The notes under the pieces are model-generated. The model was not told the origin of the DNA. It did not search any database and saw only the letters and a program-made list of their open reading frames with translations. The translations under genes were made by a program, and so were the position numbers. From Vulgatibacter sp. (lineage in GTDB: Bacteria > Myxococcota > Myxococcia > Myxococcales > Vulgatibacteraceae), in the NCBI RefSeq assembly GCF_041687135.1, contig NZ_JAWLCN010000015.1, positions 12,033-76,032 on the forward strand: DNA of 64,000 bases, given 5' to 3'. Of the stretch, positions 37,346 to 61,537 are shown piece after piece; positions within the stretch are counted from its first letter, which is position 1, and every line of letters begins with the position of its first letter.

Positions 37346-37361
37346 AGCAAGCGGCTTGCCA
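37346..37361 (-). promoter_or_regulatory. sigma-54 promoter upstream of flgF
   Basis: Minus strand reads TGGCAA gccgc TTGCT (GG-N10-GC with full TGGCA/TTGC arms). It lies 25 nt upstream of the flgF ATG, with a GAGGAGGA RBS in between. Confidence 0.7.
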
Positions 37362-37432: not shown

Positions 37433-37846
37433 ATGCGAACGCGATTCGATCCGCTGCTGCGGCTGCGGGAGCGGACGGAGGAGGAGGCGAAGCTGGCCGT
37501 GGCGTCGGAACTGCGTGGCGCGGAGGCGGTACGAGCCCGGATCGCTGCGTTCCTGGAGGCGGAGGCGCGACCTCCCGGCGACGCGGCAGCAGCGTTCTGG
37601 GAGCTGCACGGCGCCGAGCGGCTGCGCCACCGCGCCACCCTGGAGCGGCTCGAGGTGGAGCTCGCAGCTGCCGAAGCACGGGTCGAGGGGGCGCGGGCAA
37701 CCCTCGCCGCCGCCCATCGCGCAGCGGAAAGTCTGCGGCGTGCGGTGGAGAGCCGGCACGCGGCTGCGCTCATGGAGGCCGCGCGCCGGGAGCGCAAGGC
37801 GCAGGACGAGCTCGCCGCGCTCCGCTTCTCCTTCCTGCGCCGCTGA
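37433..37846 (+). CDS. fliJ: FliJ-like coiled-coil export protein (only plus-strand gene in the cluster)
   Basis: 137 aa. MRTRFDPLLRLRERTEEEAKLAVASELRGAEA... is a FliJ-type N-terminus with a two-helix coiled-coil composition. It is divergent from flgF and convergent with fliA. Confidence 0.55.
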   Translation: MRTRFDPLLRLRERTEEEAKLAVASELRGAEAVRARIAAFLEAEARPPGDAAAAFWELHGAERLRHRATLERLEVELAAAEARVEGARATLAAAHRAAESLRRAVESRHAAALMEAARRERKAQDELAALRFSFLRR

Positions 37847-37895: not shown

Positions 37896-38612
37896 TCACC
37901 GATCCTCCGCGAGCGCCGCCCGGAGGCGCTTCGTCGCTTCGCCGTGGATCTGGCAGACCCGTGGCTCGCTCACCCCGAGGACCTGCGCGACCTCCTTGTT
38001 GGAGAGACCCTCTACGTAGCGGAGCGAGACGACGAGCTGCTGCCGCTCCGGTAGCGCGGCGATCGCCTGGGCGAGGCGGCCCTGCAGCCGCGCCCGATCG
38101 AGGAGCTCCTCCTGCAGCGGCGCAGGGCTCGGCGGCACCGTCGCCTCGTCGATCGGCACCACCGGCTGGAGCAGCGCGGCGAGCTCGCCGACCTCCTCCA
38201 CCGGCAGGTCGAGCGCCGCTGCGAGCTCCGCCTCGTCGGGCTCTCTGCCCAGCTTTTCCGCCAACTCCCTGCGCGCCGCCTGCAGCCGGTCGAGATCGGC
38301 CCGCAGCCTGCGGGGCAGGTGGTCGAGCCGGCGCAGTTCGTCGAGCATCGCGCCCCGGACTCGGTGCTCGGCGAAGGTTTCGAAGCGGACGTCCCGTGCA
38401 GCGTCGAAGCGGCGCGCTGCATCGAGGAGGCCCAGCGCGCCAGCCGACCAGAGATCGTCGAAGGCATGGTGCATCGCGGCGCGGAAGCAGAGGCGCCGCG
38501 CCATCCGGTCGAGGAGCGCAGCATGGCGCTCGACGAGCTGCGCCTCATCGAGACGGCTCGCCTGCGCGTAGAGCGCGTGGCCCCTGCGCGCGAATCCCCC
38601 GAGCGGCGTCAT
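37896..38612 (-). CDS. fliA: flagellar sigma factor FliA (sigma-28)
   Basis: Region 2 is FDDLWSAGALGLLDAARRFDAARDVRFETFAEHRVRGAMLDELR. Region 4 is LPERQQLVVSLRYVEGLSNKEVAQVLGVSEPRVCQIHGEA. It overlaps flhG by 4 nt. Confidence 0.9.
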   Translation of the reverse strand: MTPLGGFARRGHALYAQASRLDEAQLVERHAALLDRMARRLCFRAAMHHAFDDLWSAGALGLLDAARRFDAARDVRFETFAEHRVRGAMLDELRRLDHLPRRLRADLDRLQAARRELAEKLGREPDEAELAAALDLPVEEVGELAALLQPVVPIDEATVPPSPAPLQEELLDRARLQGRLAQAIAALPERQQLVVSLRYVEGLSNKEVAQVLGVSEPRVCQIHGEATKRLRAALAEDR

Positions 38613-39469
38613 GCCCGCGCCCGTGCCGCCGACTCGAGCATCAGCCTGTGCCAGAGGAACTTCAGCCCGCCGTCCAGCCGCGTCGGAGGCGGCCTGCGCA
38701 GGAGGTTCGCGACGACCCCTTCCAGCGCGCGGCTCACCGGGGAGAGCGGGTAGGCGTCGACCACGGGCCGCTGGCTCATCACCGCGCGGTGGACGTTCTC
38801 GTCCCGGGGGAGATGGCCGGCGTAGGAGAGCTGCGCCTCGAGGAAGCGCCGGGTGATTCCTTCGAGCTTGCCGAAGACCTCCCGGGCCTGCGCCTCGCTC
38901 GCCGCCGGATTGACCAGCACGTCGAAGTGGCGGACGCCCGCCGATTGCGAGAGCGCCTTCACCGCGGCGTAGGCGTCGGTGAGCGAAGTGGGCTCGGGGC
39001 TCACCACCAGCAGTGCCTCCTGCGCGGCACCCACGAAGAAGAGCACATTGTCGCCGATGCCTGCCGGGGAGTCGACGATCACGAAATCGAACTCCTCCTC
39101 GAGCTCGTCGAGGGCCCCGAGGAGACGGAGCTTCTCCAATTCGGCGAGCTGGGTGAGGTGCTGCAGGCCGGATCCTGCGGAGAGCACGCGGATCCCGTGC
39201 GGGCCCTCGGCGAGGACGTCGCGAACCGGCACCTCGAGGCGCAGTACGTCCCCCAGGTGGTGGCGCGGCCGGATCCCGAGGAGGATGTCGGCGTTGGCGA
39301 GGCCGAGGTCCGCGTCGACGAGGAGCACCCGCGAGCCGGCCCTGGCCACCAGCACCGCGAGGTTGGTCGAGATGGTGCTCTTGCCCACGCCCCCCTTGCC
39401 GGAGGTGACGGCGATGACCCGCAGCGGCTCGCCGCCCAGCAGGCTCTGTATCTCTTCTCTCGGATCCAT
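38609..39469 (-). CDS. flhG: MinD-like ATPase FlhG (FleN/YlxH)
   Basis: This is the tail of track ORF 38609..40693, starting at ATG 39469. The deviant Walker A is TSGKGGVGKST. A C-terminal amphipathic helix GLKFLWHRLM is present. Confidence 0.88.
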   Translation of the reverse strand: MDPREEIQSLLGGEPLRVIAVTSGKGGVGKSTISTNLAVLVARAGSRVLLVDADLGLANADILLGIRPRHHLGDVLRLEVPVRDVLAEGPHGIRVLSAGSGLQHLTQLAELEKLRLLGALDELEEEFDFVIVDSPAGIGDNVLFFVGAAQEALLVVSPEPTSLTDAYAAVKALSQSAGVRHFDVLVNPAASEAQAREVFGKLEGITRRFLEAQLSYAGHLPRDENVHRAVMSQRPVVDAYPLSPVSRALEGVVANLLRRPPPTRLDGGLKFLWHRLMLESAARARA

Positions 39470-39474
39470 TTCAC

Positions 39475-40626
39475 TCACCTCGCACCTGCCCGAACGCGTT
39501 CGCGCTCCGCGCTTCCCATCACCAGGTCGACCAGATCGAGCTCGTCCACCGCGCGCAGATCCTCCGGCACGCGCTGGCCGTTGGCGACGCAAGAGACCGG
39601 GCGATCGATCCGCACCAGCGCCGAGAGCACGCCGCCGGGCGCCGCGGCCTCGTCCACCTTCGAGACGATGATCCGCTCGGGCTCCAGCCTGCGGTACCGC
39701 TCGGCAACCGCAGCCAGCTCCCGCGCCCCCGCAGCGGCGCTGACCACCAGATGCATCTGCACGCCGGGGACGCTGCGAATCGACTCCGCCTGCTGCGCCA
39801 CCGCCTCGTGGGTCGAACGACCCGCGGTGTCGACGAGGACGAGATCGGCGCCGGCCGCTCGGGCCACCGCGTGGACGAGCTCCTCGCGGTCGCGGGCGAT
39901 CCAGGTCGGCGCCCCGAGGATCTCCCCGTAACGCGCGAGCTGGTCGCTGGCGCCGACGCGGTAGGTGTCGACGGTGATCAGCGCCACCCGCAGCCGGGAC
40001 TCGAGGACCGCCCTTGCCGCGATCTTGGCCAGGCTGGTGGTCTTGCCGACGCCGGTCGGGCCGACGAAGGCCAGGACCTTCGCGCCGTGACGCAGCCAGG
40101 GGGCCCTGGTGGCGGAGATGCGGCGCCGGAGCAGCTCGCGGACCGCCGTCCGCAACTCCTCTGCACCAGCATGCCCGGCGGCGAGCGACTGGCGGACGAG
40201 CTCCTCCGCCAGCGCCTCCTCGACACCTGCATCGAGCAGCGACTCGTGCACGGCGGCTGCGGCGGCGTCGAAGCGCAGCGCCTGCTGGATGCGGCTCTCC
40301 CGGCTCACCCGTCGCAGCTCCCGCCGCGCCTCGGCGAGGGCCTCGCGCATCGCTGCCATCTCGCCGGCGAAGGACGGGGCGAGGAGCGCCGCCCGCGGCT
40401 CCGGTTCGCGCGCAGTGCCCGTCGCCGCTGGCGGCGGCGCCGGCGGGGCCTCGAGGGCGGCGGTCACCTCGATCTCGGGACCGCGGAGCAGCGTGCGCGG
40501 AATCGAGCGGGTGGAGACGATGACGGCATCCGGCCCGAGGGCCGCCTTCACCGCTGCGAGAGCGGCGCGGGTATCCGCCGCACGGAAGGTGCGAAGGGTT
40601 GGAGAGGGAGCCATGTCGGTCCTCAA
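39475..40626 (-). CDS. flhF: SRP-type GTPase FlhF
   Basis: G1 is GPTGVGKTT, followed by TVDTYRVGASDQL and LVDTAGRS. It has an N-terminal B-domain. Confidence 0.9.
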   Translation of the reverse strand: MRTDMAPSPTLRTFRAADTRAALAAVKAALGPDAVIVSTRSIPRTLLRGPEIEVTAALEAPPAPPPAATGTAREPEPRAALLAPSFAGEMAAMREALAEARRELRRVSRESRIQQALRFDAAAAAVHESLLDAGVEEALAEELVRQSLAAGHAGAEELRTAVRELLRRRISATRAPWLRHGAKVLAFVGPTGVGKTTSLAKIAARAVLESRLRVALITVDTYRVGASDQLARYGEILGAPTWIARDREELVHAVARAAGADLVLVDTAGRSTHEAVAQQAESIRSVPGVQMHLVVSAAAGARELAAVAERYRRLEPERIIVSKVDEAAAPGGVLSALVRIDRPVSCVANGQRVPEDLRAVDELDLVDLVMGSAERERVRAGAR

Positions 40627-42692
40627 GCGGCGCTCCTGCCGGGTAGCTGGATCTGCCCTGCAGGCTCGACCGCGGTGCCCGCGAGCAGCTCACGGGCGCT
40701 GATCACCTGCATGTCGGGGACGAAGCGGGAAACGAAGTCGAAGAGGGGCCGGCGGAGATCGGGTGGCGCGAGGAGCACCGGCGTCCTGCCTGCGGCGGCG
40801 AGAGTCGCCGCGTTGGATTCCAGGGCCTCGATGAGCTTGCGCGCGGTGGCGACGTCGGGTGCGAGGGCCGCCTCGCCGTCGGCGTTGCCGAGGGATGCCC
40901 GGAGGAGATCCTCGGTGGTGCGGTCGAGGGTGAGGGCGCGCACCTTCCCTGCCTCGTCGCGGAGCCTGCTGGTGATCTGGCGCGCGAGCCTGCGCCGCAC
41001 CTGTTCGACCATCCAGGCGTTGTCCTTGCTGCGGGGTGCAGCGTCGGCGATCGCCTCGAGGATCGTGCGCATGTCCCGGACCGACAGACCCTCGCGCACC
41101 AGCGAGCGGATCACCCGCACCACCTCTCCGAGGGTGACGGTGCCGGGCACGACGTCCTCCACCAGCTTCGGTGCCTCCCTGGCGCAGGCGCCGAGCATCT
41201 CCTGCACCTCCTGCCTTCCCACGAGCTCGTGGGCATGGCGGCGGAGGAGCTCGCCGAGGTGGGTCGTCACCACCGAGGGGACGTCGACGAGGGTCAGGCC
41301 CATCGTCTCCGCCCGGGGGCGATCGCCGGCGCGGATCCAGATCGCGGGCAGGCCGAAGGCAGGTTCCCGACCGGCGATCCCCTCGATCGATGGGGTGCCG
41401 CCCCGCGGGTCGAGGGCCATGAGCCGGTCGGGCCACGCCTTGCCCGCGCCGATCTCCAGGCCCCGGAGCAGCACGCGGTACTCGTTGGCGTCGAGGCGCA
41501 GATCGTCCCGGAGGTGGATCGAAGGGAAGACCACCCCGAGCTCCTCGGCGAGCTTGCGCCGCAGGGCGGTGATCCTGCCCGGAAGCTCGCCGCCCTTCTC
41601 CACGTCGATCGACGCGAGGAGGCCGTAGCCCACCTGCAGCTCGAGGGCGTCGACCGCCAGGAGGTCCTGGATCCGATCGCCCGGCGGCGGCCCCTCCTGC
41701 TTCGAGGGGCGCGCCTGCCCCGCATCGGCTCGCGCCCTGGCGCGGCGGGCGAGGACGAGGGCGCCGGCAGCCAGCGAGCCGAAGGCGAGGAAGGGCAGGC
41801 CCGGCAGCAGCGCCAGCGCGCCGAGCACCGCGGCGGTGGAGTGGAGGACGCGCGGGTTGCCGAGGACCTGGCTGCCGACCTGGGTGCCGAGGTCGTCGCC
41901 GTCGGCTCTGGTGACCACGATGCCGGCAGCGGTGGAGACGAGGAGCGCCGGCATCTGGGAGACGAGCCCGTCGCCCACCGTGAGCAGGGTGTAGGTCTCT
42001 ACCGCGCTGGCCAGGGAGAGGCCGTCGCGGAAGAGACCGGTGAGCAGGCCGCCGATCACGTTGATCACCGTGATGAAGAGGCCGGCGATGGCGTCGCCGC
42101 GGACGAATTTGCTGGCACCATCCATGGCGCCGAAGAACTCGGACTCCTGTTCGAGCCTGGTGCGGCGGGTCCGTGCCTCGCGGTCGTCGATGATCCCGGC
42201 TGCCAGATCGGCGTCGATCGCCATCTGCTTGCCGGGCATGGCGTCGAGGGTGAAGCGGGCCGCCACTTCCGAGACGCGTCCCGACCCCTTGGTGATCACC
42301 ACGAAGTTGACCACGAGGAGGATCAGGAAGATCACCAGCCCCACCACCAGGCTGCCGCCCACGACGAACCTGCCGAAGGCCTCGATCACCCCGCCGGCGG
42401 CCCCTGCGCCCTTGCCTCCATCGAGCAGGATCAGCCGGGTCGTGGCGACGTTGAGCCCGAGGCGGAAGAGGGTGCTGATCAGCAGCAGCGACGGGAAGAC
42501 GGAGAAGTCCAGGGGCTGCCGGATCCCCAGGGCCACGAGCAGCATCATCACCGAGATGCCCACGTTGAAGGCGAGCAGGCCGTCGAGGGCCGCCGCCGGT
42601 ACCGGCAGGATCAGGATGGCCAGCACCGCCAGCACGGCCATGGCCGCGAGCGTCTCGCCCGTCCCCCTGGCGCCCTGCGCCGTGGCGGCCAT
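40623..42692 (-). CDS. flhA: flagellar export gate protein FlhA
   Basis: This is the tail of track ORF 40623..44657, starting at ATG 42692. Matching segments are FPSLLLISTLFRLGLNVATTRLIL, VVNFVVITKGSGRVSEVAARFTLDAMPGKQMAIDADL and the FHIPEP core. The length is 689 aa. Confidence 0.95.
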   Translation of the reverse strand: MAATAQGARGTGETLAAMAVLAVLAILILPVPAAALDGLLAFNVGISVMMLLVALGIRQPLDFSVFPSLLLISTLFRLGLNVATTRLILLDGGKGAGAAGGVIEAFGRFVVGGSLVVGLVIFLILLVVNFVVITKGSGRVSEVAARFTLDAMPGKQMAIDADLAAGIIDDREARTRRTRLEQESEFFGAMDGASKFVRGDAIAGLFITVINVIGGLLTGLFRDGLSLASAVETYTLLTVGDGLVSQMPALLVSTAAGIVVTRADGDDLGTQVGSQVLGNPRVLHSTAAVLGALALLPGLPFLAFGSLAAGALVLARRARARADAGQARPSKQEGPPPGDRIQDLLAVDALELQVGYGLLASIDVEKGGELPGRITALRRKLAEELGVVFPSIHLRDDLRLDANEYRVLLRGLEIGAGKAWPDRLMALDPRGGTPSIEGIAGREPAFGLPAIWIRAGDRPRAETMGLTLVDVPSVVTTHLGELLRRHAHELVGRQEVQEMLGACAREAPKLVEDVVPGTVTLGEVVRVIRSLVREGLSVRDMRTILEAIADAAPRSKDNAWMVEQVRRRLARQITSRLRDEAGKVRALTLDRTTEDLLRASLGNADGEAALAPDVATARKLIEALESNAATLAAAGRTPVLLAPPDLRRPLFDFVSRFVPDMQVISARELLAGTAVEPAGQIQLPGRSAA

Positions 42693-43741
42693 CAGGCTGC
42701 TCCCCTGCGCAGTCGGTAGACGAAGGCGAGAATCGCGGCGACGGCCTTGTAGGTCTCCTCGGGGATCTCCTTGCCGACCTTGACCCGGCGGTAGAGGAGC
42801 CGGGCGAGCGGCACGTCCTCCACGATCGCCACCCCGTTGGCGCGGGCGATGTCTCGCATGATCTCCGCCAGTTGCCCCTTGCCCTTTGCCACCACCCGCG
42901 GCGCGCGATCGCTGCCACGCCGGTAGCGGATCGCCACCGCCACGTGGGTCGGATTGACGAGCAGCGCGTCCGCCTGCGGTACCTCCACCACGACGCGCGC
43001 CTTCGCCATCTCGCGGTGGCGGCGCCGGCGCTGCGAGCGGAGGAGCGGATCGCCCTCGTCTTCCTTGTGCTCTCGCTTGAGCTCGTCCCGGGTCATACGC
43101 ATCCTGGCTGCGAAGCGTTGCCGTGCCACTGCAAGGTCCAGGCCCGCTGCTGCGACCAACGCCACCGCCAGCCAGGGAAGCGCGCGCACCAGCGGCGCGA
43201 AGGTCGCGCCGAGCAGCTCCCGTGGCGCCAGATGCAGCAGCCGTGGCAGCGTCAGGAAATCGTCGCGCAGCGCGAACCAGGCAGCTCCTCCTACCGCCAG
43301 CACCTTGACGCCGGCGAGGCCGAGGTCGGCGAGCACCTCGCGCGAGACGAGGCGGGTGAGCCTGGAGCCCTGCCAGAGCCGTTCCGGATCGGGGAGGGCG
43401 AGGTGGAGCCAGAACCTGCCGCGGGTCTGCAGCGCGCCGGCACCGACGGCAGCGAGCGCCACCGTGGCGCAGATCGAGGCGGCGGTGGTGACGGGCGCCA
43501 CGACGAGAGGCAACAGCGCCGACGGGGATGTCCCGGCGAGCCCGGTGGCACCGGCGGCCACCAGCGCACCCAACTCGTCGAGCAGCGCCGGGGCGAAGAG
43601 GAGCAGGGCGCCGCATCCAGCCGCCAGAGCGGCGACGGCGGAGGCATCCCTGCCGATCGGGATCTGCCCCTTCTCTGCCGCTTGCTCGAGCCTGCGTTGC
43701 GAGGCCTGCTCGGTCTTGTCGTCCTTCTCTTCGTCGGCCAT
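42692..43741 (-). CDS. flhB: flagellar export switch protein FlhB
   Basis: The N-terminus is MADEEKDDKTEQASQRRLEQAAEKGQIPIGRD. The autocleavage site is NPTH (LLVNPTHVAVAIRY). Confidence 0.95.
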   Translation of the reverse strand: MADEEKDDKTEQASQRRLEQAAEKGQIPIGRDASAVAALAAGCGALLLFAPALLDELGALVAAGATGLAGTSPSALLPLVVAPVTTAASICATVALAAVGAGALQTRGRFWLHLALPDPERLWQGSRLTRLVSREVLADLGLAGVKVLAVGGAAWFALRDDFLTLPRLLHLAPRELLGATFAPLVRALPWLAVALVAAAGLDLAVARQRFAARMRMTRDELKREHKEDEGDPLLRSQRRRRHREMAKARVVVEVPQADALLVNPTHVAVAIRYRRGSDRAPRVVAKGKGQLAEIMRDIARANGVAIVEDVPLARLLYRRVKVGKEIPEETYKAVAAILAFVYRLRRGAA

Positions 43742-43744
43742 CGT

Positions 43745-44497
43745 TCAGCCGCTCCGGATCGCCACGAGCGCGGCCCGCGCCGCCGCATCGGCAGCTGCGG
43801 GCAGGACGAGGTAGAGCGCGGCGCCGCCGGCGAAGATGGCGATGGAGAAGCCGATGCTCGCCAGGTTGAGCTGCGGCGCGATCCTGCCGAGGAGCCCCAG
43901 GGCCAGGTGGCCACAGGTCACCGCGGCGAGTATGGGGAAGGCGAGGCGCACGGCCAGTGCGGTGCCGGCGAGACCGTGCACCACCACCGCGCCAGCGAGG
44001 GATCGGACGTCGATGCTGCTGCCCGGCGGAAAGGCGATTGCAGAGCGGGTGAGCCAGGCGAAGGCCTCGCGGTGGAGACCCAGCGCGACGGCGAAGGCGA
44101 GCGCGCCCATGGCGAAGAGCTGGCCGAGGGCGGTGGTGGAGGCGCCGCCCACCGGGTCGACGAGGGCGCCGTAGCCCAGACCCACCGAGAGCCCCGCCAC
44201 CTGTCCCGCAGCCTGCGCGGCCTCGAGCACCAGCCGCGCGGCGAGGCCCGCAGCGAGGCCAACCACGGTCTCGGCGATCGCGGCGCCGGCGATGGCAACC
44301 AGATGATCCGGGAGTGCGACCGCCGGCATCCCCGCGCCGGCGAAAGCCGCAGCTGCAGCGACTAGCGCGAGGGCCATCCGGACGGTGACGGGGATGGTCC
44401 CCGCACCGAGGACCGGCACCGCGGCGATCAGCCCCGCGCTCCGGAAGAGCACGAGGCCGAAGCCGTAGAGAAGGGGCGCTCCCAGCACGTCCTGCAT
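43745..44497 (-). CDS. fliR: flagellar export apparatus protein FliR
   Basis: 250-aa polytopic membrane protein in the fliQ-fliR-flhB position. It contains FGLVLFRSAGLIAAVPVLG. Confidence 0.88.
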   Translation of the reverse strand: MQDVLGAPLLYGFGLVLFRSAGLIAAVPVLGAGTIPVTVRMALALVAAAAAFAGAGMPAVALPDHLVAIAGAAIAETVVGLAAGLAARLVLEAAQAAGQVAGLSVGLGYGALVDPVGGASTTALGQLFAMGALAFAVALGLHREAFAWLTRSAIAFPPGSSIDVRSLAGAVVVHGLAGTALAVRLAFPILAAVTCGHLALGLLGRIAPQLNLASIGFSIAIFAGGAALYLVLPAAADAAARAALVAIRSG

Positions 44498-44763
44498 CAG
44501 AAGGGCCCCGCCATCCGCGCGACCGCCTCGGCGAAGTGGGCGGCGAGCCGCTCCGCCATCCAGCTCCCCAGGAACCAGCAGATCCCTGCTCCAGCAGCGA
44601 GGCGCGGGAGAAAGCCGACGGCGGGATCGTTGATCTGCGTCGCTGCCTGGAAGACACCGACGAGGAGGCCAGCCACCAGGAGCGCGGCGAAGATCGGGCC
44701 GCCGACCAGAAGTGCGATCTGCAGCCCCTCGCGGAGCAGCCCGCCGGCGAGCTCGGGCGTCAC
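44497..44763 (-). CDS. fliQ: flagellar export apparatus protein FliQ
   Basis: This is the tail of track ORF 44497..45852. GTG 44763 overlaps the fliP TGA. It is 88 aa with two TM segments, and contains GLLVGVFQAATQINDPAVGFLPRL. Confidence 0.88.
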   Translation of the reverse strand: MTPELAGGLLREGLQIALLVGGPIFAALLVAGLLVGVFQAATQINDPAVGFLPRLAAGAGICWFLGSWMAERLAAHFAEAVARMAGPF

Positions 44764-45446
44764 GTGAAACTCCGGACGAGCGACGAGACGACGAGGTGCC
44801 AGCCGTCCGCGAGGAGGAAGATGCCGAGCTTCACCGGAAGGGAGATCAGGTTGGGCGGCACCATCATCATCCCGAGCGACATGAGGATGGCCGCGACGAT
44901 CAGGTCGACGAGGAGCAGGGGCACGTAGACGAGGAGGCCCATGCGAAAGGCCGTCGTGAGCTCCGAGACCATGAAGGCGGGAACCGCCACCGTGAGGGGG
45001 ATCTCCTCCCCGCGGGCCGGACGCTCGGCTCCCGCAATCTCGTAGAAGAGCCGCAGGTCGTTCTCGCGGGTGTGGCGCAGGAGGAATTCGCGCAGCGGAA
45101 CCGAGGCGCGTTCGAAGGCGGTGCCGGCGTCCATCGCGTCGGCGAGGTAGGGCCCGAGCCCGGCCTCGTAGACACGGGTGGCGGTGGGCGCCATCACGAA
45201 CGCGGACAGGGCGAGGGCGAGTCCGATCAGGACCTGGTTCGGCGGGAGCTGCGGCGTGCCGAGTGCCTGCCGGAGGAAGGAGAGGACGATTACGATCCGG
45301 GTGAAGGAGGTGAGAGAGACGAGGATCGCCGCGGCGAAGGAGAGAAGCGTGAGGAGGAGGAAGAGCTTGACGGCGGTGGAGCCGCCGCCGTCCACCGTGA
45401 GCTGCAGCGCCGGTTCCGCGGCTGCAGCGAGGAGCGCCGCGCTCAT
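44760..45446 (-). CDS. fliP: flagellar export apparatus protein FliP
   Basis: Matching segments are TSFTRIVIVLSFLRQALGTPQLPPNQVLIGLALALSAFVMAP and FMVSELTTAFRMGLLVYVPLLLVDLIVAAILMSLGMMMVPP. Confidence 0.95.
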   Translation of the reverse strand: MSAALLAAAAEPALQLTVDGGGSTAVKLFLLLTLLSFAAAILVSLTSFTRIVIVLSFLRQALGTPQLPPNQVLIGLALALSAFVMAPTATRVYEAGLGPYLADAMDAGTAFERASVPLREFLLRHTRENDLRLFYEIAGAERPARGEEIPLTVAVPAFMVSELTTAFRMGLLVYVPLLLVDLIVAAILMSLGMMMVPPNLISLPVKLGIFLLADGWHLVVSSLVRSFT

Positions 45447-45919
45447 CGCGGGCTCCTGGCCCTGCCGGCGGCGACCTTGCGGCGCAGCTCCTCGTCCTCC
45501 GCGCTCGTTGCGAGGAGCTCGTCGAACCCGGGCTTGCGGGCGAGTCCCAGCCTGGCGAGGGCCCCCGCCTGGCTCTGCTCCAGTTCCGGCGCCGCCTCCT
45601 GCCGTGGCGGCGCCGGCCTCGTGGCGAGGAGCTGGATCCCCGCTTCGCTGCTCCCGAGCACGAGGAGCTCCTCGCCGATCCTGCAGACCACGACGCTGCG
45701 CTTCGGACCGAGGGAAGCCGTTTCGACCACCTGGACGAGACGGCCCGGCGCGCCGCGGCGCCTCGCGAGGAGCAGTGCCACGCCGGCGAGCACGAGAAGG
45801 ACGATCGCCGGCAGCGCGACGGCGCCGAATTCGGGGAAGGCCGCGGTGGCAAGCGCCGCCTCTTCTCCGATGGGCGGGGGTGCGCCGGCGACGAGCACGT
45901 TGGTGAGGAGGGTTCCCAT
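45443..45919 (-). CDS. fliO: FliO/FliZ-like flagellar export protein
   Basis: It has a single TM (AVALPAIVLLVLAGVALLLARRR). This is followed by LVQVVETASLGPKRSVVVCRIGEELLVLGSSEAGIQLL. It sits in the fliN-fliO-fliP position. Confidence 0.7.
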   Translation of the reverse strand: MGTLLTNVLVAGAPPPIGEEAALATAAFPEFGAVALPAIVLLVLAGVALLLARRRGAPGRLVQVVETASLGPKRSVVVCRIGEELLVLGSSEAGIQLLATRPAPPRQEAAPELEQSQAGALARLGLARKPGFDELLATSAEDEELRRKVAAGRARSPR

Positions 45920-45921
45920 CT

Positions 45922-46218
45922 TCAGCGCAGCCGGGCCAGCCGCTCGGCGGGGCTGGCGATGTCCGTGATCCGCACGCCGAACTTCTCGCCGACGACCACC
46001 GCTTCGCCTCTGGCGACGAGCCGATCGTTGACGAGGATGTCGAGGGGCTCCCCGGCGACCTTGTCGAGCTCGATCACGGCGCCGGGGCCCAGGCCGAGCA
46101 GATCCTGGATCGTCATCCGCGAGCGGCCGAGCTCCACTGCGATCTGCAGCGGCACATCGAGGAGGAGATCGAGCTTCTGGCTCATCGGTGGGAGATCTCG
46201 CCGCTCGTTCTCGTTCAT
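45922..46218 (-). CDS. fliN: flagellar C-ring protein FliN
   Basis: This is the tail of track ORF 45922..47124, starting at ATG 46218. The SpoA domain is LLLDVPLQIAVELGRSRMTIQDLLGLGPGAVIELDKVAGEPLDILVNDRLVARGEAVVVGEKFGVRI. Confidence 0.92.
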   Translation of the reverse strand: MNENERRDLPPMSQKLDLLLDVPLQIAVELGRSRMTIQDLLGLGPGAVIELDKVAGEPLDILVNDRLVARGEAVVVGEKFGVRITDIASPAERLARLR

Positions 46219-47228
46219 GCTCTCTCCGTCGCAGCTTCGCTCGGCGCGATGCGATCGCCGGGCATCGCCTGCACGCCTTGCGCCAGCCGAACCGCCAGAT
46301 TTCCGCCGCTCACGAGCGGCATGCCCACCAGCTTTTCCCGGCCCTCCACCAGCACCGGCAAGGGGCGGTTCTCCTCGCCGGAGAGTACGAGGACATCGCC
46401 GACCTGGAGCTCGAGGAGCCGCGCCAACGTCACCTCCGTGGCGCCGAGGCGGGCGCTGAGCTGGACCCGCACCGCCTGCAGTTCCTCGGCGAGGGCGCCG
46501 GCGAAACGCAGGTTCGTTCCCGGACCGAGGCCCGGCGGGGCGGCGAGGAGCTTCTTCGCCGGCTCCACCGCTGCCCAGGGGATCACCAACTGGATTCTGC
46601 CGGAGATCGGGCCGGCGATCTCGAAGGGGGCGAGGATCGCCACCTCGTTGGCGGGGCCGGGGAGGGAGAGGCGCGGATCGCTGTCCACCCGGACCACCTC
46701 CACCTGCAGGGGCAGGACCGCAGCCCACGCCTGGTTCATCGCTTCTGCGAGGAGGCCGAGGAGCCGCTGCAGGACCACGCGATCCACCGGCGTCAGCTCG
46801 CGACTCGCTGCCTGCGGCTGCTGCCGCGGCTTGCGATCGCCCAGCGCCGCAGCGAGCAGGGCGTCGGCGAGCCCCGCCTCGAGGACGGCGAGGGCCTTGC
46901 CCTGGCCACCCTGCAGCGAGAAGACGGCGGTGATCGCCGGTGGGGCGAGGAGGATCTGTACGTCGCCGAGCTTGAGCATCGAGGCCGGGGCGCTCGTCAC
47001 CGTGAGGTCGAGGCGGGTCCGCCCCGAGAGCCCGGCGCCGAAGAGGGAGGCGACGCGCTCGTCGATCGAGTCGAGGGTGGGCATCTGCCCACGGATGATC
47101 CGGTCGCGGCTGGTGAGATCCCACGGAGAGACCCGCGCCTGCTGGGGAACCGGGGGCTGCGGCGCGACCCTTCCGTCGCTGATCGCGCTCATCAGCGCAT
47201 CGAGCTCCTCGGCCTCGAGCACCGCCAT
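46215..47228 (-). CDS. fliM: flagellar C-ring protein FliM
   Basis: This is the tail of track ORF 46215..49733, starting at ATG 47228. The N-terminus is EELDALMSAI (CheY-P-binding LSQxEIDALL-like). A FliM middle domain and a C-terminal SpoA-like domain are present. Confidence 0.88.
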   Translation of the reverse strand: MAVLEAEELDALMSAISDGRVAPQPPVPQQARVSPWDLTSRDRIIRGQMPTLDSIDERVASLFGAGLSGRTRLDLTVTSAPASMLKLGDVQILLAPPAITAVFSLQGGQGKALAVLEAGLADALLAAALGDRKPRQQPQAASRELTPVDRVVLQRLLGLLAEAMNQAWAAVLPLQVEVVRVDSDPRLSLPGPANEVAILAPFEIAGPISGRIQLVIPWAAVEPAKKLLAAPPGLGPGTNLRFAGALAEELQAVRVQLSARLGATEVTLARLLELQVGDVLVLSGEENRPLPVLVEGREKLVGMPLVSGGNLAVRLAQGVQAMPGDRIAPSEAATERA

Positions 47229-47230
47229 GG

Positions 47231-47695
47231 CTACTGCACCACGAAGTCGGCGATGTAGACGGCGCGGACGGGCCTGCCGGGGAGCACCGTCTCCAACTCG
47301 CGAAGCATCGCTTCCTTCATCCGCTCCATGCCCTCGCTGCCGCGCATCTCCTCGAGCGTGCGATCGGCGAGCCAGGCGAGGAGCGCGTCCCGCAGCTTCG
47401 GCATGTAGGTGGTGACGGTCTCGCGCTCCTTCTCGCCGGCGAGCTCCAGCTCGAGGGTGAGGCGGGCGTAGCGATCCACCTCGGGGTTGCGCAGGTGCAC
47501 CACGAAATCCGGCAGACGGACGATGGGACCCAGCGCCGGAGCGACAGGGGCCTGCGCCGCCGCGTCGGCGGACTCCTGCGGCGCCTTCTCCGCCACGTCG
47601 CTGCCGACTCCGCCCTGGCGGAGGAACAACGTCGCGAGCACGCCGGCGAGGAGCAGGGTGTTGAGGCCGAGAAGAAGGGGGACGAGCTTGTTCAC
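47231..47695 (-). CDS. fliL: flagellar basal-body-associated protein FliL
   Basis: It has a single N-terminal TM. Matching segments are IVRLPDFVVHLRNPEVDRYARLTLELEL and AVYIADFVVQ. The start is GTG. Confidence 0.85.
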   Translation of the reverse strand: MNKLVPLLLGLNTLLLAGVLATLFLRQGGVGSDVAEKAPQESADAAAQAPVAPALGPIVRLPDFVVHLRNPEVDRYARLTLELELAGEKERETVTTYMPKLRDALLAWLADRTLEEMRGSEGMERMKEAMLRELETVLPGRPVRAVYIADFVVQ

Positions 47696-47724
47696 GTGAC
47701 GCTCCCGTGTTGGTCGCGTCCGTG

Positions 47725-47739
47725 AGCAAGGGACGTGCC
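47725..47739 (-). promoter_or_regulatory. sigma-54 promoter upstream of fliL
   Basis: Minus strand reads aGGCACG tccc TTGCT, matching TGGCACG-N4-TTGCW. It lies 30 nt upstream of the fliL GTG, with a GGGAG RBS. Confidence 0.75.
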
Positions 47740-47791
47740 TGCCCGCTGCCCCGGCAGAAGCAGACCGGGATCGTCAGGCCGCTGGCAGGTT

Positions 47792-47807
47792 CGTCAGGGG
47801 TCTGACG
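47792..47807. promoter_or_regulatory. CGTCA-N6-TGACG palindrome (candidate enhancer/UAS for the fliL sigma-54 promoter)
   Basis: The sequence is CGTCAggggtcTGACG. Its centre is about 60 nt upstream of the -24 element. The same core GTCA-N6-TGAC occurs at 60303-60318 and twice at 61505-61537. Confidence 0.55.
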
Positions 47808-47904
47808 ACGGCTCAGAGCCTGTGAAGAAATCGGTCCGGCAAGCGCCGGCCCGCTTTCTTCCCTCGCGCTTCGCGCGAGAAACGCTCCTTCTTGCGATCG
47901 CTTC

Positions 47905-47953
47905 GCCCTCGCCCCCTGAGAGTTTGTTTCACAAACTCTCAGGGGGCGAGGGC
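47905..47953 (-). terminator. perfect 23-bp inverted repeat (3-nt loop) overlapping the last 5 codons and stop of motB
   Basis: The sequence is GCCCTCGCCCCCTGAGAGTTTGT ttc ACAAACTCTCAGGGGGCGAGGGC. Every position was paired by hand. Two smaller hairpins follow at 47863-47879 and 47836-47849, the latter with a U-rich tail on the minus strand. Confidence 0.5.
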
Positions 47954-58958: not shown

Positions 58959-60235
58959 GGTGCTCCCTCCTGCTGTCGCCCTGCGGCGGTCTCCCGCGAC
59001 GTCATCGTTTCCGGGGAGCCTTCGCCTTGCGAAGCGCGTGCCTCGCCGCGTGCTCGTGACGCCGCCGTCCGCGCCGCGTCGAGATCGTCGGCGATCGCCG
59101 AGGATCGTTCCGTCGGCGCAGAGGGAGCCGGCGGCAGCGGCGGCGCTGCTGCCGCCGGCTCCAGGCCCCGTTCGACGGCGCGCCAGGACGCGGACGCGAG
59201 CAGGGCAGGTGGCAGCCGCCGCCTGGCGAAGGCGAGGATGACTTCGGCGCGCACCAGGTCGTCCGCCTCGAGGAATAGCTCGGCGGCACGGAGGAGGTGC
59301 GCTGGCAGTTCGTCGGCCTCCGCCTCTTCCACCGTGGCCGACAGGGACCTGGCGCCGAAGGCGGGCGCGCCCGTCTCCGCTGCCACCTCCGCGGCAGCGC
59401 GCGCGAGGGCTGCTGCGAGCGGCTTTCCGGCCTCGTCGTCGAGGTCGGCGAAGGCGGCGAGGGCGTCGGCTCGAACCACCGGATCGTCGCTGCGCAGCCC
59501 CTCGAGCACGATGCGCCTGCAGAGAAGAGGTGCATGGGCGCACGCGGCGCCGCTGCCCGGCCCGAGACGCTGGAGTGCACCACCGAGGTCACCGTGGAAG
59601 GCCCGCGCCCTTGCGGCGCGGAGGTCCAGGTCGATCCGCAGCAGCCGGGGGAGGCCGACGCCGTCGAAGATCGCCCTTTCCTGCGTCGTCCCGAAGCAGC
59701 TCCCGGTGACCTCGCAGATCCGGGCGGTAGCCAGCCGTCCCCAGTTTCCGGTGCCGGCAGCCTCCTTCCAGGCCGCGAGGGCGGTGGCCCAGTCCCCGTC
59801 GGCGAGCGCGAGGTCGCCGCGCCGCACTGCCGCCGCCCGTGCTTCGGCCGCGCCTGCCTCCGGCGCGAGGAGCGGCGGGCCGTCCGGGCCCGCGCGCCAG
59901 GGGAGGCCGCGCAGCCTGTGGATCTCGAGGGCGCCGGGGCGCAGGTTCGCCGCGATGCGGCGGCTCACGCAGTGGAGGACGATCGCATCCGCCCGCTCCT
60001 CGAGCCTCGGGCAGGTGGGACCGAGCGCGTCGGCGCGCAGGCCGCGGGCGCCCCGGAGGACGAGGCGGGCGCCGAGCGCGTCGACCTCGAGGGTTGGGGC
60101 ACGGCCGGCGGGCAACGCCACGTACTCCACGCCTGCGGCAGCGAGCAGCCCGGGGGGCGCGGGCGCGGCAACCGCGACGTTCGCGGGAAGAGCGAGCGCG
60201 ATGAGGAGGTGGAGGAGGAGCGGGCGGGTGGACAC
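58955..60235 (-). CDS. hypothetical secreted 426-aa protein, first cistron of the flgB unit
   Basis: The signal peptide is MSTRPLLLHLLIALALPANVAVA-AP. The TGA overlaps the flgB GTG (GTGA). It is Ala/Leu/Arg-rich and helical, with a possibly TPR-like segment (GDWATALAAWKEAAGTGNWGRLATARI). I recognise no flagellar family. Confidence 0.6.
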   Translation of the reverse strand: MSTRPLLLHLLIALALPANVAVAAPAPPGLLAAAGVEYVALPAGRAPTLEVDALGARLVLRGARGLRADALGPTCPRLEERADAIVLHCVSRRIAANLRPGALEIHRLRGLPWRAGPDGPPLLAPEAGAAEARAAAVRRGDLALADGDWATALAAWKEAAGTGNWGRLATARICEVTGSCFGTTQERAIFDGVGLPRLLRIDLDLRAARARAFHGDLGGALQRLGPGSGAACAHAPLLCRRIVLEGLRSDDPVVRADALAAFADLDDEAGKPLAAALARAAAEVAAETGAPAFGARSLSATVEEAEADELPAHLLRAAELFLEADDLVRAEVILAFARRRLPPALLASASWRAVERGLEPAAAAPPLPPAPSAPTERSSAIADDLDAARTAASRARGEARASQGEGSPETMTSRETAAGRQQEGAP

Positions 60236-60302: not shown

Positions 60303-60318
60303 CGTCAAGGTGCTGACG
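60303..60318. promoter_or_regulatory. CGTCA-N6-TGACG palindrome overlapping the activator gene stop codon (candidate enhancer for the flgB-unit promoter)
   Basis: The sequence is CGTCAaggtgcTGACG. Its centre is about 50 nt upstream of the -24 element at 60260-60261. Confidence 0.5.
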
Positions 60319-61450
60319 GTGAAACCTGCCTGCGGCGGAGCTTCTCCACCAGCGTGGTCCGCTGCAATCCGAGTAGATCCGCCGCGGCTCGTTTGTTTCC
60401 GCCGGACTGCGCCAGGGCCGCCACGATGAGGCGGTCCTCCATCTCCCGGAGGAGCTGGGGCAGGTTCACGGGAAGGGTGGGAAGGGAGAGCGCCGGCGTG
60501 CGCTCTTCGAGCGCCTCGCGGTCCTGGTTCGCGCAGGGAGCGTTCGCCTCGGCCTCTGGCGCGAAGGGCACATCGTCGACCGGCGGCGCCAGCGGCATGA
60601 CGGACTCGGCAGCAGGCGGGGGAATCGGATCGGCGTGCAGGACGGGGGGCTCGCGCGGCGTCACTTCGATGGCGCCGCCGCGGAGGGACGCGGGCAGATC
60701 GTGCAGGCACACGGTCTCGCCCTCGGCGCAGACCGAGAGACGTTCCACGAGGTTCTCCAACTCGCGGATGTTGCCGGGCCACCGGTGGCCCTCGAGGGCG
60801 GTGAAGACCGAAGCCTCGACCTGCCGTGTCTCGCCGCGCTTTCCCCAGAAGTGGCAAAAGAGGGGAACGACGTCGCCCGGGCGCTCACGGAGTGGCGGCA
60901 GCTCGATCGGGCAGACGAGGAGGCGGAAGTAGAGGTCCTGCCGGAAGCGACCTGCTTCCACCTCGGCGGCGAGGTCGCGGTTGGTGGCGGCAACCAGGCG
61001 AAAGTCGGCTGCCACCGGCTCGGTGCTTCCCACCGGCTCGTAGCTTCGCTCCTGGAGGACCCGGAGCAACTTCACCTGAAGCGAGAGCGGCAGCTCGCCA
61101 ATCTCGTCGAGAAAGAGCGTGCCCCCTTCGGCCGCTGCGATCCTGCCCCGCCGGGGGGAGGAGGCACCGGTGAAGGCGCCCCGCACGTAGCCGAAGAGCT
61201 CGCTCTCCAGCAACGCCTCCGGAATTGCACCGCAATTGACCGGCACGAGCAGCCTTTCGGCCCGCGGGCTCGCCGCGTGGAGCAGCCGGGCGAAGACCTC
61301 CTTGCCGGTTCCCGTCTCGCCGGTCAGGAGGACGGTCGCGTCGCTGCGTGCGATCCGCCGCGAGACGCGGGCCAGCTCGGCGATCGGCGAATCGGCGCCG
61401 TGGACGAGGAGCGGCTTGGCGGCGGGGGTGGGGGCTGCAGGCAGGGCCAT
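60305..61450 (-). CDS. sigma-54-dependent transcriptional activator consisting only of AAA+ and Fis-type HTH domains (no receiver/FleQ N-domain)
   Basis: Walker A is GETGTGKE. The sigma-54 contact loop is GAFTGA (GYVRGAFTGA). Walker B is LFLDEIGE, followed by WPGNIRELEN. The C-terminal HTH is GGNKRAAADLLGLQRTTLVEKL. The start is set at ATG 61450 (GGAGAA RBS), and the AAA+ core begins about aa 15. Confidence 0.88.
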   Translation of the reverse strand: MALPAAPTPAAKPLLVHGADSPIAELARVSRRIARSDATVLLTGETGTGKEVFARLLHAASPRAERLLVPVNCGAIPEALLESELFGYVRGAFTGASSPRRGRIAAAEGGTLFLDEIGELPLSLQVKLLRVLQERSYEPVGSTEPVAADFRLVAATNRDLAAEVEAGRFRQDLYFRLLVCPIELPPLRERPGDVVPLFCHFWGKRGETRQVEASVFTALEGHRWPGNIRELENLVERLSVCAEGETVCLHDLPASLRGGAIEVTPREPPVLHADPIPPPAAESVMPLAPPVDDVPFAPEAEANAPCANQDREALEERTPALSLPTLPVNLPQLLREMEDRLIVAALAQSGGNKRAAADLLGLQRTTLVEKLRRRQVSPSAP

Positions 61451-61504: not shown

Positions 61505-61537
61505 TGTCAGTCCCATGACAATGTCATTTCGGTGACA
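61505..61537. promoter_or_regulatory. two adjacent TGTCA-N6-TGACA palindromes
   Basis: TGTCAgtcccaTGACA (61505-61520), a, TGTCAtttcggTGACA (61522-61537). The junction TGACAaTGTCA is itself palindromic. The pair lies immediately upstream of the -24 element. Confidence 0.6.

Follow-up and report, generated by a model that had tools for sequence, protein, structure and literature searches.

We analysed a 64-kb window of DNA ("the window" throughout; C15:12033-76032) from the genome of Vulgatibacter sp. (5.42 Mb, 71% GC, 19 contigs), and describe here the gap between the flagellar genes motB and fliL, which probably contains a sigma-54 promoter and activator boxes that start transcription of fliL and the genes that follow it. 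The gene calls, based on a codon-bias model of third-codon-position GC content (GC3), comprise 4,537 genes that cover 89.7% of the genome and leave an intergenic share of 10.3%. The identities of the cluster genes are from matches to Pfam and NCBIfam profiles plus these gene calls. The window holds a complete flagellar cluster on the minus strand, and the gap between motB and fliL (47938-47696), whose 243 nt agree with the size given in an earlier note made from the sequence alone, is the largest same-strand gap of this cluster. The features on which the interpretation depends are as follows.

47231..47695, minus strand: fliL (Pfam FliL, 4.7e-20), the gene that opens the fliL-to-fliA unit.
47702..47706, minus strand: ribosome-binding site of fliL, GGGAG, read from the sequence.
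47725..47740, minus strand: sigma-54 -24/-12 element PfliL, aGGCACGtcccTTGCt, an 11/12 match, intergenic and conserved before fliL in relatives.
47771..47788, unstranded: box II, a degenerate copy, TGCCAgcggccTGACGa on the minus strand, with one mismatch in 8 core bases.
47791..47808, unstranded: box I, a perfect palindrome, TCGTCAG-N4-CTGACGA, with the core GTCA-N6-TGAC, rare in the genome and conserved upstream of PfliL.
47905..47953, unstranded: perfect 23-bp hairpin across the motB stop codon, without a U-tract, a probable transcript boundary of the upstream unit.
37896..47695, minus strand: predicted 12-gene operon fliL-fliM-fliN-fliO-fliP-fliQ-fliR-flhB-flhA-flhF-flhG-fliA, based on packing and profile matches.
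60305..61450, minus strand: FleQ-like sigma-54 activator, the proposed binder of the boxes, based on Pfam, a solved-structure match and orthologues.

The PfliL element reads AGGCACGTCCCTTGCT on the minus strand from 47740 to 47725 and matches TGGCACG-N4-TTGCW at 11 of 12 positions. Exactly 10 nt lie between its GG (47739-38) and its GC (47727-26), and its 3' edge is 29 nt from the fliL GTG (47695), with the GGGAG at 47706-47702 lying in between. The transcription start is predicted to be near 47714. The earlier note had described a near-consensus -24/-12 element on the minus strand before fliL, the GGGAG ribosome-binding site and a perfect palindrome about 60 nt upstream of -24, all of which we find at these positions. 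A consensus scan of the motB-fliL gap identified neither a sigma-70-type promoter nor a U-tract terminator, and an Rfam search of the same gap returned only sub-threshold hairpin look-alikes.

The palindrome, box I, contains the sequence CGTCA-N6-TGACG at 47807-47792, and its centre is located 60 nt upstream of the GG of the -24 element. The centre of box II is 20 bp on the promoter side of that of box I, which would place the two centres at approximately -65 and -85, respectively, with respect to the predicted start of PfliL. The same region had previously been noted for a direct repeat. This repeat, GG(a/t)TCGTCAGG, is indeed present on the plus strand at 47768 and 47788, with the copies 20 nt apart; however, the second copy reads TGCCAgcggccTGACG on the minus strand, which is a box with one core mismatch, and is better regarded as a degenerate copy of box I, offset from it by 20 bp. 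The arms of the box and the length of its 6-nt spacer match the FleQ box consensus of Pseudomonas aeruginosa, GTCaNTAAAtTGAC (quoted in PMC6120874), and only the composition of the spacer differs. Thus, the inverted repeat GTCA-N6-TGAC expected of a FleQ box is found near a flagellar sigma-54 promoter, whereas the A/T-rich spacer (NTAAAT) is absent from the cluster boxes, whose spacers are GACCCC, GCGGCC, GCACCT, CCGAAA and TGGGAC.

The frequency of the promoter motif proved uninformative (the window contains 9 occurrences with at most two mismatches, compared to 6.5 in shuffled sequences and within their range) and, therefore, placement and conservation were used as evidence. Across the genome, 35 sites match the sigma-54 consensus at 11/12 or better. 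Of these, 31 are intergenic, compared to the 10.3% of the genome that is intergenic, and 27, including PfliL, are located no more than 300 nt upstream of the start of a gene on the same strand, where approximately 2 would be expected by chance. The GTCA-N6-TGAC box occurs 32 times in the genome; only four copies are fully intergenic, three of them in the flagellar cluster, where one more box overlaps the stop codon of the activator gene. All four cluster boxes sit 3-51 nt upstream of a GG-N10-GC element, that of the activator's own promoter included. The longer form, CGTCA-N6-TGACG, has four genomic copies, two of which are in the flagellar cluster, and the half-site CTGACG is under-represented about four-fold in the genome. 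The machinery for sigma-54 transcription is present, with one rpoN gene (Sigma54_DBD, 1.3e-65) and ∼27 activator genes.

The sole fully intergenic box outside the flagellar cluster, GGTCATGCGATTGACT (C5:226749, G000), lies ∼100 nt before a gene for a 627-residue secreted protein with a lipoprotein-like N-terminus, and no evident sigma-54 element was seen nearby.

Orthologous flagellar clusters were identified in 12 relatives from four families of one order, and the sequence preceding fliL was readable in nine genomes. A GG-N10-GC element matching at 10-11 of 12 positions precedes fliL in G000, G006, G008, G004, G038, G021, G039 and G015, and in G003, which has no fliL match, it precedes fliM. 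In each of the nine genomes, a ribosome-binding site and a start codon follow 25-45 nt downstream of the element, although the surrounding sequence is otherwise unalignable. A perfect GTCA-N6-TGAC box is located upstream in 7 of the nine, often flanked as CGTCA...TGACG. In G038, ∼10 kb separates motB from fliL, and the promoter and two perfect boxes adjoin fliL, not motB; in G025, chemotaxis genes are located between motB and fliL, and the promoter and boxes are likewise beside fliL. A wider sample of 151 genomes from the phylum contains fliL in 31, and 28 fliL loci were scored. A sigma-54 element is present within 450 nt upstream of fliL in 17 of these loci (∼0.01 expected per locus), including genomes of 47-52% GC, and a perfect box is also found upstream in 14 (∼0.005 per locus expected by chance). 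In whole genomes of the relatives, CGTCA-N6-TGACG occurs 1-18 times per genome, no more often than a reversed control pattern, and at least 13 of the 44 perfect copies tallied in eight genomes fall within flagellar clusters, which make up less than 1% of each genome. PfliL is, thus, intergenic, correctly oriented, close to a gene and retained in orthologous loci, as would be expected of a sigma-54 promoter.

In G038, a second, shorter paralogue of the cluster activator is located between orf426 and flgB (L066/L067, G038:C1:1184000-1218999), and 5 of the 13 genomic CGTCA-N6-TGACG boxes are found within the same ∼50-kb region.

The flagellar cluster itself encodes a candidate box-binding protein. 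Pfam detects only the Sigma54_activat, AAA_lid_14 and HTH_8 domains in this activator, and the GAFTGA loop is present. Its likely start codon (ATG at 61450) leaves ∼18 residues before the AAA+ domain and no room for an N-terminal input domain. The same short N-terminus, with ∼18-25 residues before AAA+, is observed in 8 orthologues (L062, L064, L066, L068, L071, L072, L076 and L078), such that none of the nine activators, from four families, has an N-terminal input domain; the linker between AAA+ and the helix-turn-helix (HTH) domain is highly variable in length. The cluster activator, therefore, has the AAA+ and HTH_8 domains of the FleQ family and lacks its N-terminal FleQ/REC-like domain. 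P. aeruginosa FleQ is the closest solved structure, whether the comparison uses the entire protein or only its last 64 residues, and the AAA+ domain of FlrA is among the top solved-structure matches. The recognition helix is LQRTTLVEKLRR in the cluster activator and IRRTTLVEKMRK in FleQ, with RTTLVEK common to both. Among the nine orthologues, AAA(D/A/E)LLGL(Q/G)RTTLVEKLRR is essentially invariant and RTTLVEKLRR fully so, and no other activator of this genome contains RTTLVEK. A search for related loci with the activator alignment used back-translated patterns that amounted to generic AAA+ motifs and returned unrelated activators from many phyla; its full-length matches that extend into the HTH include gammaproteobacterial records (Shewanella, Photobacterium, Pseudomonas), which are probably of the FleQ/FlrA type. 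Since the recognition helix is shared with FleQ and the arms and spacing of the box are those of the FleQ consensus, the simplest interpretation is that the GTCA-N6-TGAC boxes are bound by this FleQ-like activator.

Downstream of PfliL, neighbouring genes from fliL to fliA overlap or are separated by gaps of at most 8 nt, given that flhF starts at the in-frame ATG at 40614, over a stretch of 9.8 kb. The identity of fliA is supported by a match to TIGR02479 above the cut-off. The sigma-54 scan inside this stretch revealed no further match of 11/12 or better, and none near the starts of flhA, flhF or fliA. This tight packing, with no other strong sigma-54 element, lends support to transcription of fliA, together with flhF and flhG, from PfliL. 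The fliL unit likewise ends with fliA in G006, G008, G021, G039, G015 and G003.

On these grounds, we consider it likely that the motB-fliL gap contains a working sigma-54 (RpoN) promoter with a FleQ-type enhancer, which drives a 12-gene unit from fliL to fliA. The earlier note had suggested such an internal promoter and activator box at the head of fliL...fliA, with sigma-28 under the control of sigma-54, and this suggestion gains support from placement, conservation, the presence of rpoN and of a FleQ-like activator, and gene packing. In the proposed mechanism, the one perfect and one degenerate box would act as the enhancer to which the FleQ-like activator, consisting of AAA+ and HTH domains with no receiver domain, binds. 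Once bound, the activator would touch the sigma-54 holoenzyme with the GAFTGA loop, and promoter opening would be powered by ATP. Transcription would then proceed across fliL-fliMNOPQR-flhB-flhA-flhF-flhG-fliA, so that sigma-54 and the activator would be required for the export gate, for FlhF and FlhG, which regulate flagellar number and placement, and for sigma-28, the late sigma factor. The hairpin at the end of motB would probably end or dampen the upstream transcript, in which case fliL would need a promoter of its own.

Further elements of the same kinds are found elsewhere in the cluster.

61501-61486, minus strand: sigma-54 element of the activator gene, TGGCCCacggcTTGCT, immediately preceded by two TGTCA-N6-TGACA boxes (61505-61520 and 61522-61537).
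60318-60303, minus strand: box CGTCAgcaccTTGACG, overlapping the activator stop codon, before orf426.
60263-60248, minus strand: weaker sigma-54-like element, cGGCACGtcggCTGCa, before orf426.
59028..59043, minus strand: sigma-54 element aGGCACGcgctTCGCa, 69 nt before flgB, within the 3' end of orf426.
37346..37361, minus strand: sigma-54 element TGGCAAGccgcTTGCt, 25 nt before flgF, conserved in relatives.

The flgB element is part of a conserved pattern, GGCACG-N4-(T/C/G)CGCA, which precedes flgB in all nine genomes examined. Since this conserved element is located inside the 3' end of orf426, orf426 and flgB probably have separate promoters. The flgF element, TGGCAAGccgcTTGCT, is likewise conserved at its position 25 nt before the gene. 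The cluster would, thus, hold at least four sigma-54 units, namely the activator's own, flgB (plus the weaker orf426), fliL and flgF. It had been suggested that PfliL divides what would be one Bacillus-like operon into two sigma-54 units; the division by an internal PfliL is supported, and the number of units would be at least four. The Bacillus-like gene order itself is clear from the collinear arrangement flgB-flgC-fliE-fliF...fliL-fliM...flhA-flhF-flhG...fliA.

The two TGTCA-N6-TGACA boxes at the activator gene are 17 bp apart and leave a 3-nt gap to the -24 element of the promoter, which is unusually near for an enhancer. Their position would be compatible with autoregulation of either sign.

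The canonical sigma-28 pattern, TAAA-N14-16-GCCGA, had no match. A looser pattern, TTAAG/TTAAC-N14-GTGCCGA(T/A/G), is found on the minus strand at 49751-49725, 32809-32783 and 27785-27759, before flbD-motAB, flgM and fliC, respectively, and the strict sigma-28-like pattern before flbD was matched in one relative only (G025). The motifs point to late promoters that depend on FliA, one of which would be internal to the flgB unit transcribed with sigma-54.

Several observations weigh against the proposed role of PfliL and its boxes. The box spacers are GC-rich, compared to the A/T-rich spacer of Pseudomonas, and GGCACG-N4-TTGC occurs 15 times in the genome, compared to ∼23 expected from base composition. 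The distance between box and promoter varies from ∼17 to ∼205 nt among lineages. Helical phasing is suggestive only (p ∼0.03-0.06 at 10.5 bp and 0.003 at 11 bp), as determined from 17 lineages that are related to one another and with several periods tried. The flgF and flgB sigma-54 promoters of this cluster have no perfect box nearby; thus, either the box is not obligatory at every flagellar sigma-54 promoter or other activators are involved. Internal sigma-70 promoters may be present before flhA, flhF or fliA, since GC-rich myxobacterial sigma-70 promoters may escape a consensus scan. The hairpin lacks a U-tract and is not retained after motB in relatives and, therefore, leaves room for read-through from motB.

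Such read-through is the basis of an alternative in which PfliL is minor or conditional, and fliL-fliA is transcribed mostly from the sigma-54 promoter of flgB or from the sigma-28-like promoter of flbD-motAB. In that case, fliA expression would not depend strictly on PfliL. We regard this explanation as rather unlikely; several observations favour it. Besides having no U-tract, the hairpin at the motB stop derives from a lineage-specific dispersed element that is absent from relatives; no terminator is visible in G008, where box and motB stop codon are in contact; and a sigma-28-like motif precedes flbD. Overlapping and read-through transcription is also common in the flagellar cluster of Pseudomonas putida (bioRxiv 10.1101/2021.08.29.457346). 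However, the promoter before fliL is strictly conserved, even where fliL is 10 kb from motB, which argues that PfliL is needed. In addition, a perfect 23-bp hairpin would be a strong barrier or processing site, and no same-strand gap of the cluster is as large as the one in which PfliL lies.

The hairpin is one copy (window 47893-47953) of a ∼55-nt dispersed element, with the consensus TGAGAGTTTGTGAAACAAACTCTCCAGCGAAGCCGAAGGCGGAGCGATCGCAAG and an AT-rich palindromic core, that is present in ∼18-20 copies (e.g., C1:285581, C3:361119 and C17:51953). Nearly every copy adjoins the 3' end of a gene, and the TGA at its edge is often the stop codon. Pairing with the last codons of MotB lengthens the stem of the motB copy to 23 bp. 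This hairpin probably ends or stabilises the upstream transcript.

A second alternative accepts the promoter and assigns the boxes to a different protein. Candidates would be the other members of the set of ∼27 activators or a dimeric regulator of a separate family, and the protein may repress or modulate transcription. In that case, the cluster activator would have its role elsewhere or would not bind DNA specifically. The absence of perfect boxes at the flgF and flgB promoters would be consistent with this possibility, as would the boxes that abut the -24 element at the activator's own promoter, where the 3-nt gap fits repression as well as activation. FleQ is both a repressor and an activator at some Pseudomonas promoters (PMC3424551). 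However, the only FleQ-type recognition helix in the genome is that of the cluster activator, this helix is identical to that of FleQ, and the box agrees with the FleQ consensus in both arms and spacing. The box and the activator gene also co-occur in flagellar clusters across families. We, therefore, consider a different binder improbable. That the PfliL match arose by chance and does not serve as a promoter, as the unremarkable motif counts in the genome (not above the base-composition expectation) and in the window (within the shuffle range at up to two mismatches) might imply, is scarcely credible and effectively refuted by the comparative data, since the element is kept at the orthologous site in 9/9 order-level and 17/28 phylum-level loci with unalignable flanks, the top-scoring matches are strongly biased to promoter positions, and the rare palindrome co-occurs with the element.

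The proposed transcription of fliL-fliA from PfliL by sigma-54 and a FleQ-like activator resembles the three-tier flagellar hierarchy established by experiment in P. putida. There, PfliL, PflhA, PflhF, PflgB and PflgF require both FleQ and sigma-54, FleN antagonises these promoters, fliA belongs to Class II, and fliC, flgM and motA are FliA-dependent (bioRxiv 10.1101/2021.08.29.457346; PMC6424431). The myxobacterial cluster also has predicted sigma-54 -24/-12 promoters before fliL, flgB and flgF, and places flhF, fleN/flhG and fliA downstream of a sigma-54 promoter, which would make sigma-28 a Class II product. It shares with Pseudomonas the GTCA-N6-TGAC box arms and a FleQ-family activator with the same recognition helix. 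Sigma-28-like motifs before the flagellin, flgM and stator genes would be a further resemblance to P. putida, although the pattern is loose and poorly reproduced in relatives. Unlike in P. putida, a single fliL-to-fliA unit seems to replace the separate PfliL, PflhA and PflhF. The cluster activator also differs from its Pseudomonas counterpart in having no N-terminal FleQ/REC-like domain and in the sigma-54 promoter and boxes of its own gene. The GC-rich box spacers, the myxobacterial host and the gene order, which is of the Bacillus/Desulfuromonas type, are further differences.

In Vibrio cholerae, a master activator of the FleQ/FlrA family drives, with sigma-54, an operon that includes flhF, flhG and fliA and, thus, places sigma-28 below sigma-54. 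The predicted position of sigma-28 in the myxobacterial cluster is like that of this FlrA/sigma-54 Class II operon (flhA-flhF-flhG-fliA). In Vibrio, the FlrBC two-component system governs a further tier of sigma-54 genes, and FlrA has an N-terminal domain; no FlrBC-like two-component pair was seen in the myxobacterial flagellar cluster. With the fla/che operon of Bacillus subtilis, the cluster shares a long collinear order and a late sigma factor gene (sigD/fliA) at the distal end. The entire Bacillus operon is transcribed from one sigma-A promoter (plus a sigma-D promoter), with no input from sigma-54. In contrast, conserved sigma-54 elements before flgB, fliL and flgF appear to split the myxobacterial order into at least four units. 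The earlier note had envisaged a cascade in the style of Pseudomonas, Vibrio or Campylobacter; the features described here are those of the FleQ type, closest to P. putida, and not of the FlgSR type of Campylobacter.

The flagella of Myxococcota have barely been studied, the phylum being known for its gliding, and we found no published account of flagellar gene regulation in this phylum. The cluster is of the same type as that of Anaeromyxobacter dehalogenans 2CP-C, which has chemotaxis genes lying between motAB and its fli genes (Thomas et al. 2008, PMC2330069), and G038 has this chemotaxis insertion between motB and fliL. The terms sigma-54, RpoN and enhancer each have zero occurrences in the text of PMC2330069. 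Our comparisons, which are of sequence throughout, provide good support for regarding the fliL locus as a well-conserved and unsurprising myxobacterial example of known FleQ/sigma-54 Class II control, fliA included. The logic is no new principle, as experiments in Pseudomonas putida and Vibrio have already demonstrated it. In the wiring proposed, the units for the basal body, for export and for fliA would be under the FleQ-like activator and sigma-54, and the late genes under sigma-28. The conservation of the FleQ box and recognition helix across phyla could aid the prediction of FleQ regulons elsewhere.

A broader and more tentative idea, which we hold with some doubt, is that the FleQ recognition code, in which RTTLVEK reads GTCA-N6-TGAC, is ancient and common to Gammaproteobacteria and Myxococcota. 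In flagellated myxobacteria, this code might be used by a minimal, input-less activator that is controlled only by its own sigma-54/box promoter and by the PfliL-induced FlhG (FleN). If so, the cluster would contain a self-contained circuit of auto-activation and delayed antagonism that times and limits flagellar assembly without a sensory domain and also gates sigma-28.

The genes of the cluster, all on the minus strand and identified by profile matches and gene calls as above, are listed here in transcription order.

5' part: sigma-54 activator (61450-60305) and the secreted orf426.
Second block: flgB, flgC, fliE, fliF, fliG, fliH, fliI, fliJ-like, fliK, flgD, flgE, flbD, motA and motB (48715-47939).
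Third block, after the 243-nt gap: fliL (47695-47231), fliM, fliN, fliO, fliP, fliQ, fliR, flhB, flhA, flhF, flhG and fliA (38612-37896).
Last block: flgF, flgG, flgA, flgH, flgI, flgJ, flgM, an open reading frame (32437-32057), flgK, flgL, orf642, fliC, fliD and fliS.

Between the last two blocks, an open reading frame on the plus strand (37433-37846) encodes a fliJ-like coiled-coil protein of 137 residues (Pfam FliJ, 4e-6, below the cut-off). It is convergent with fliA and divergent from flgF, with which it shares a 112-nt gap that also holds the flgF sigma-54 promoter.

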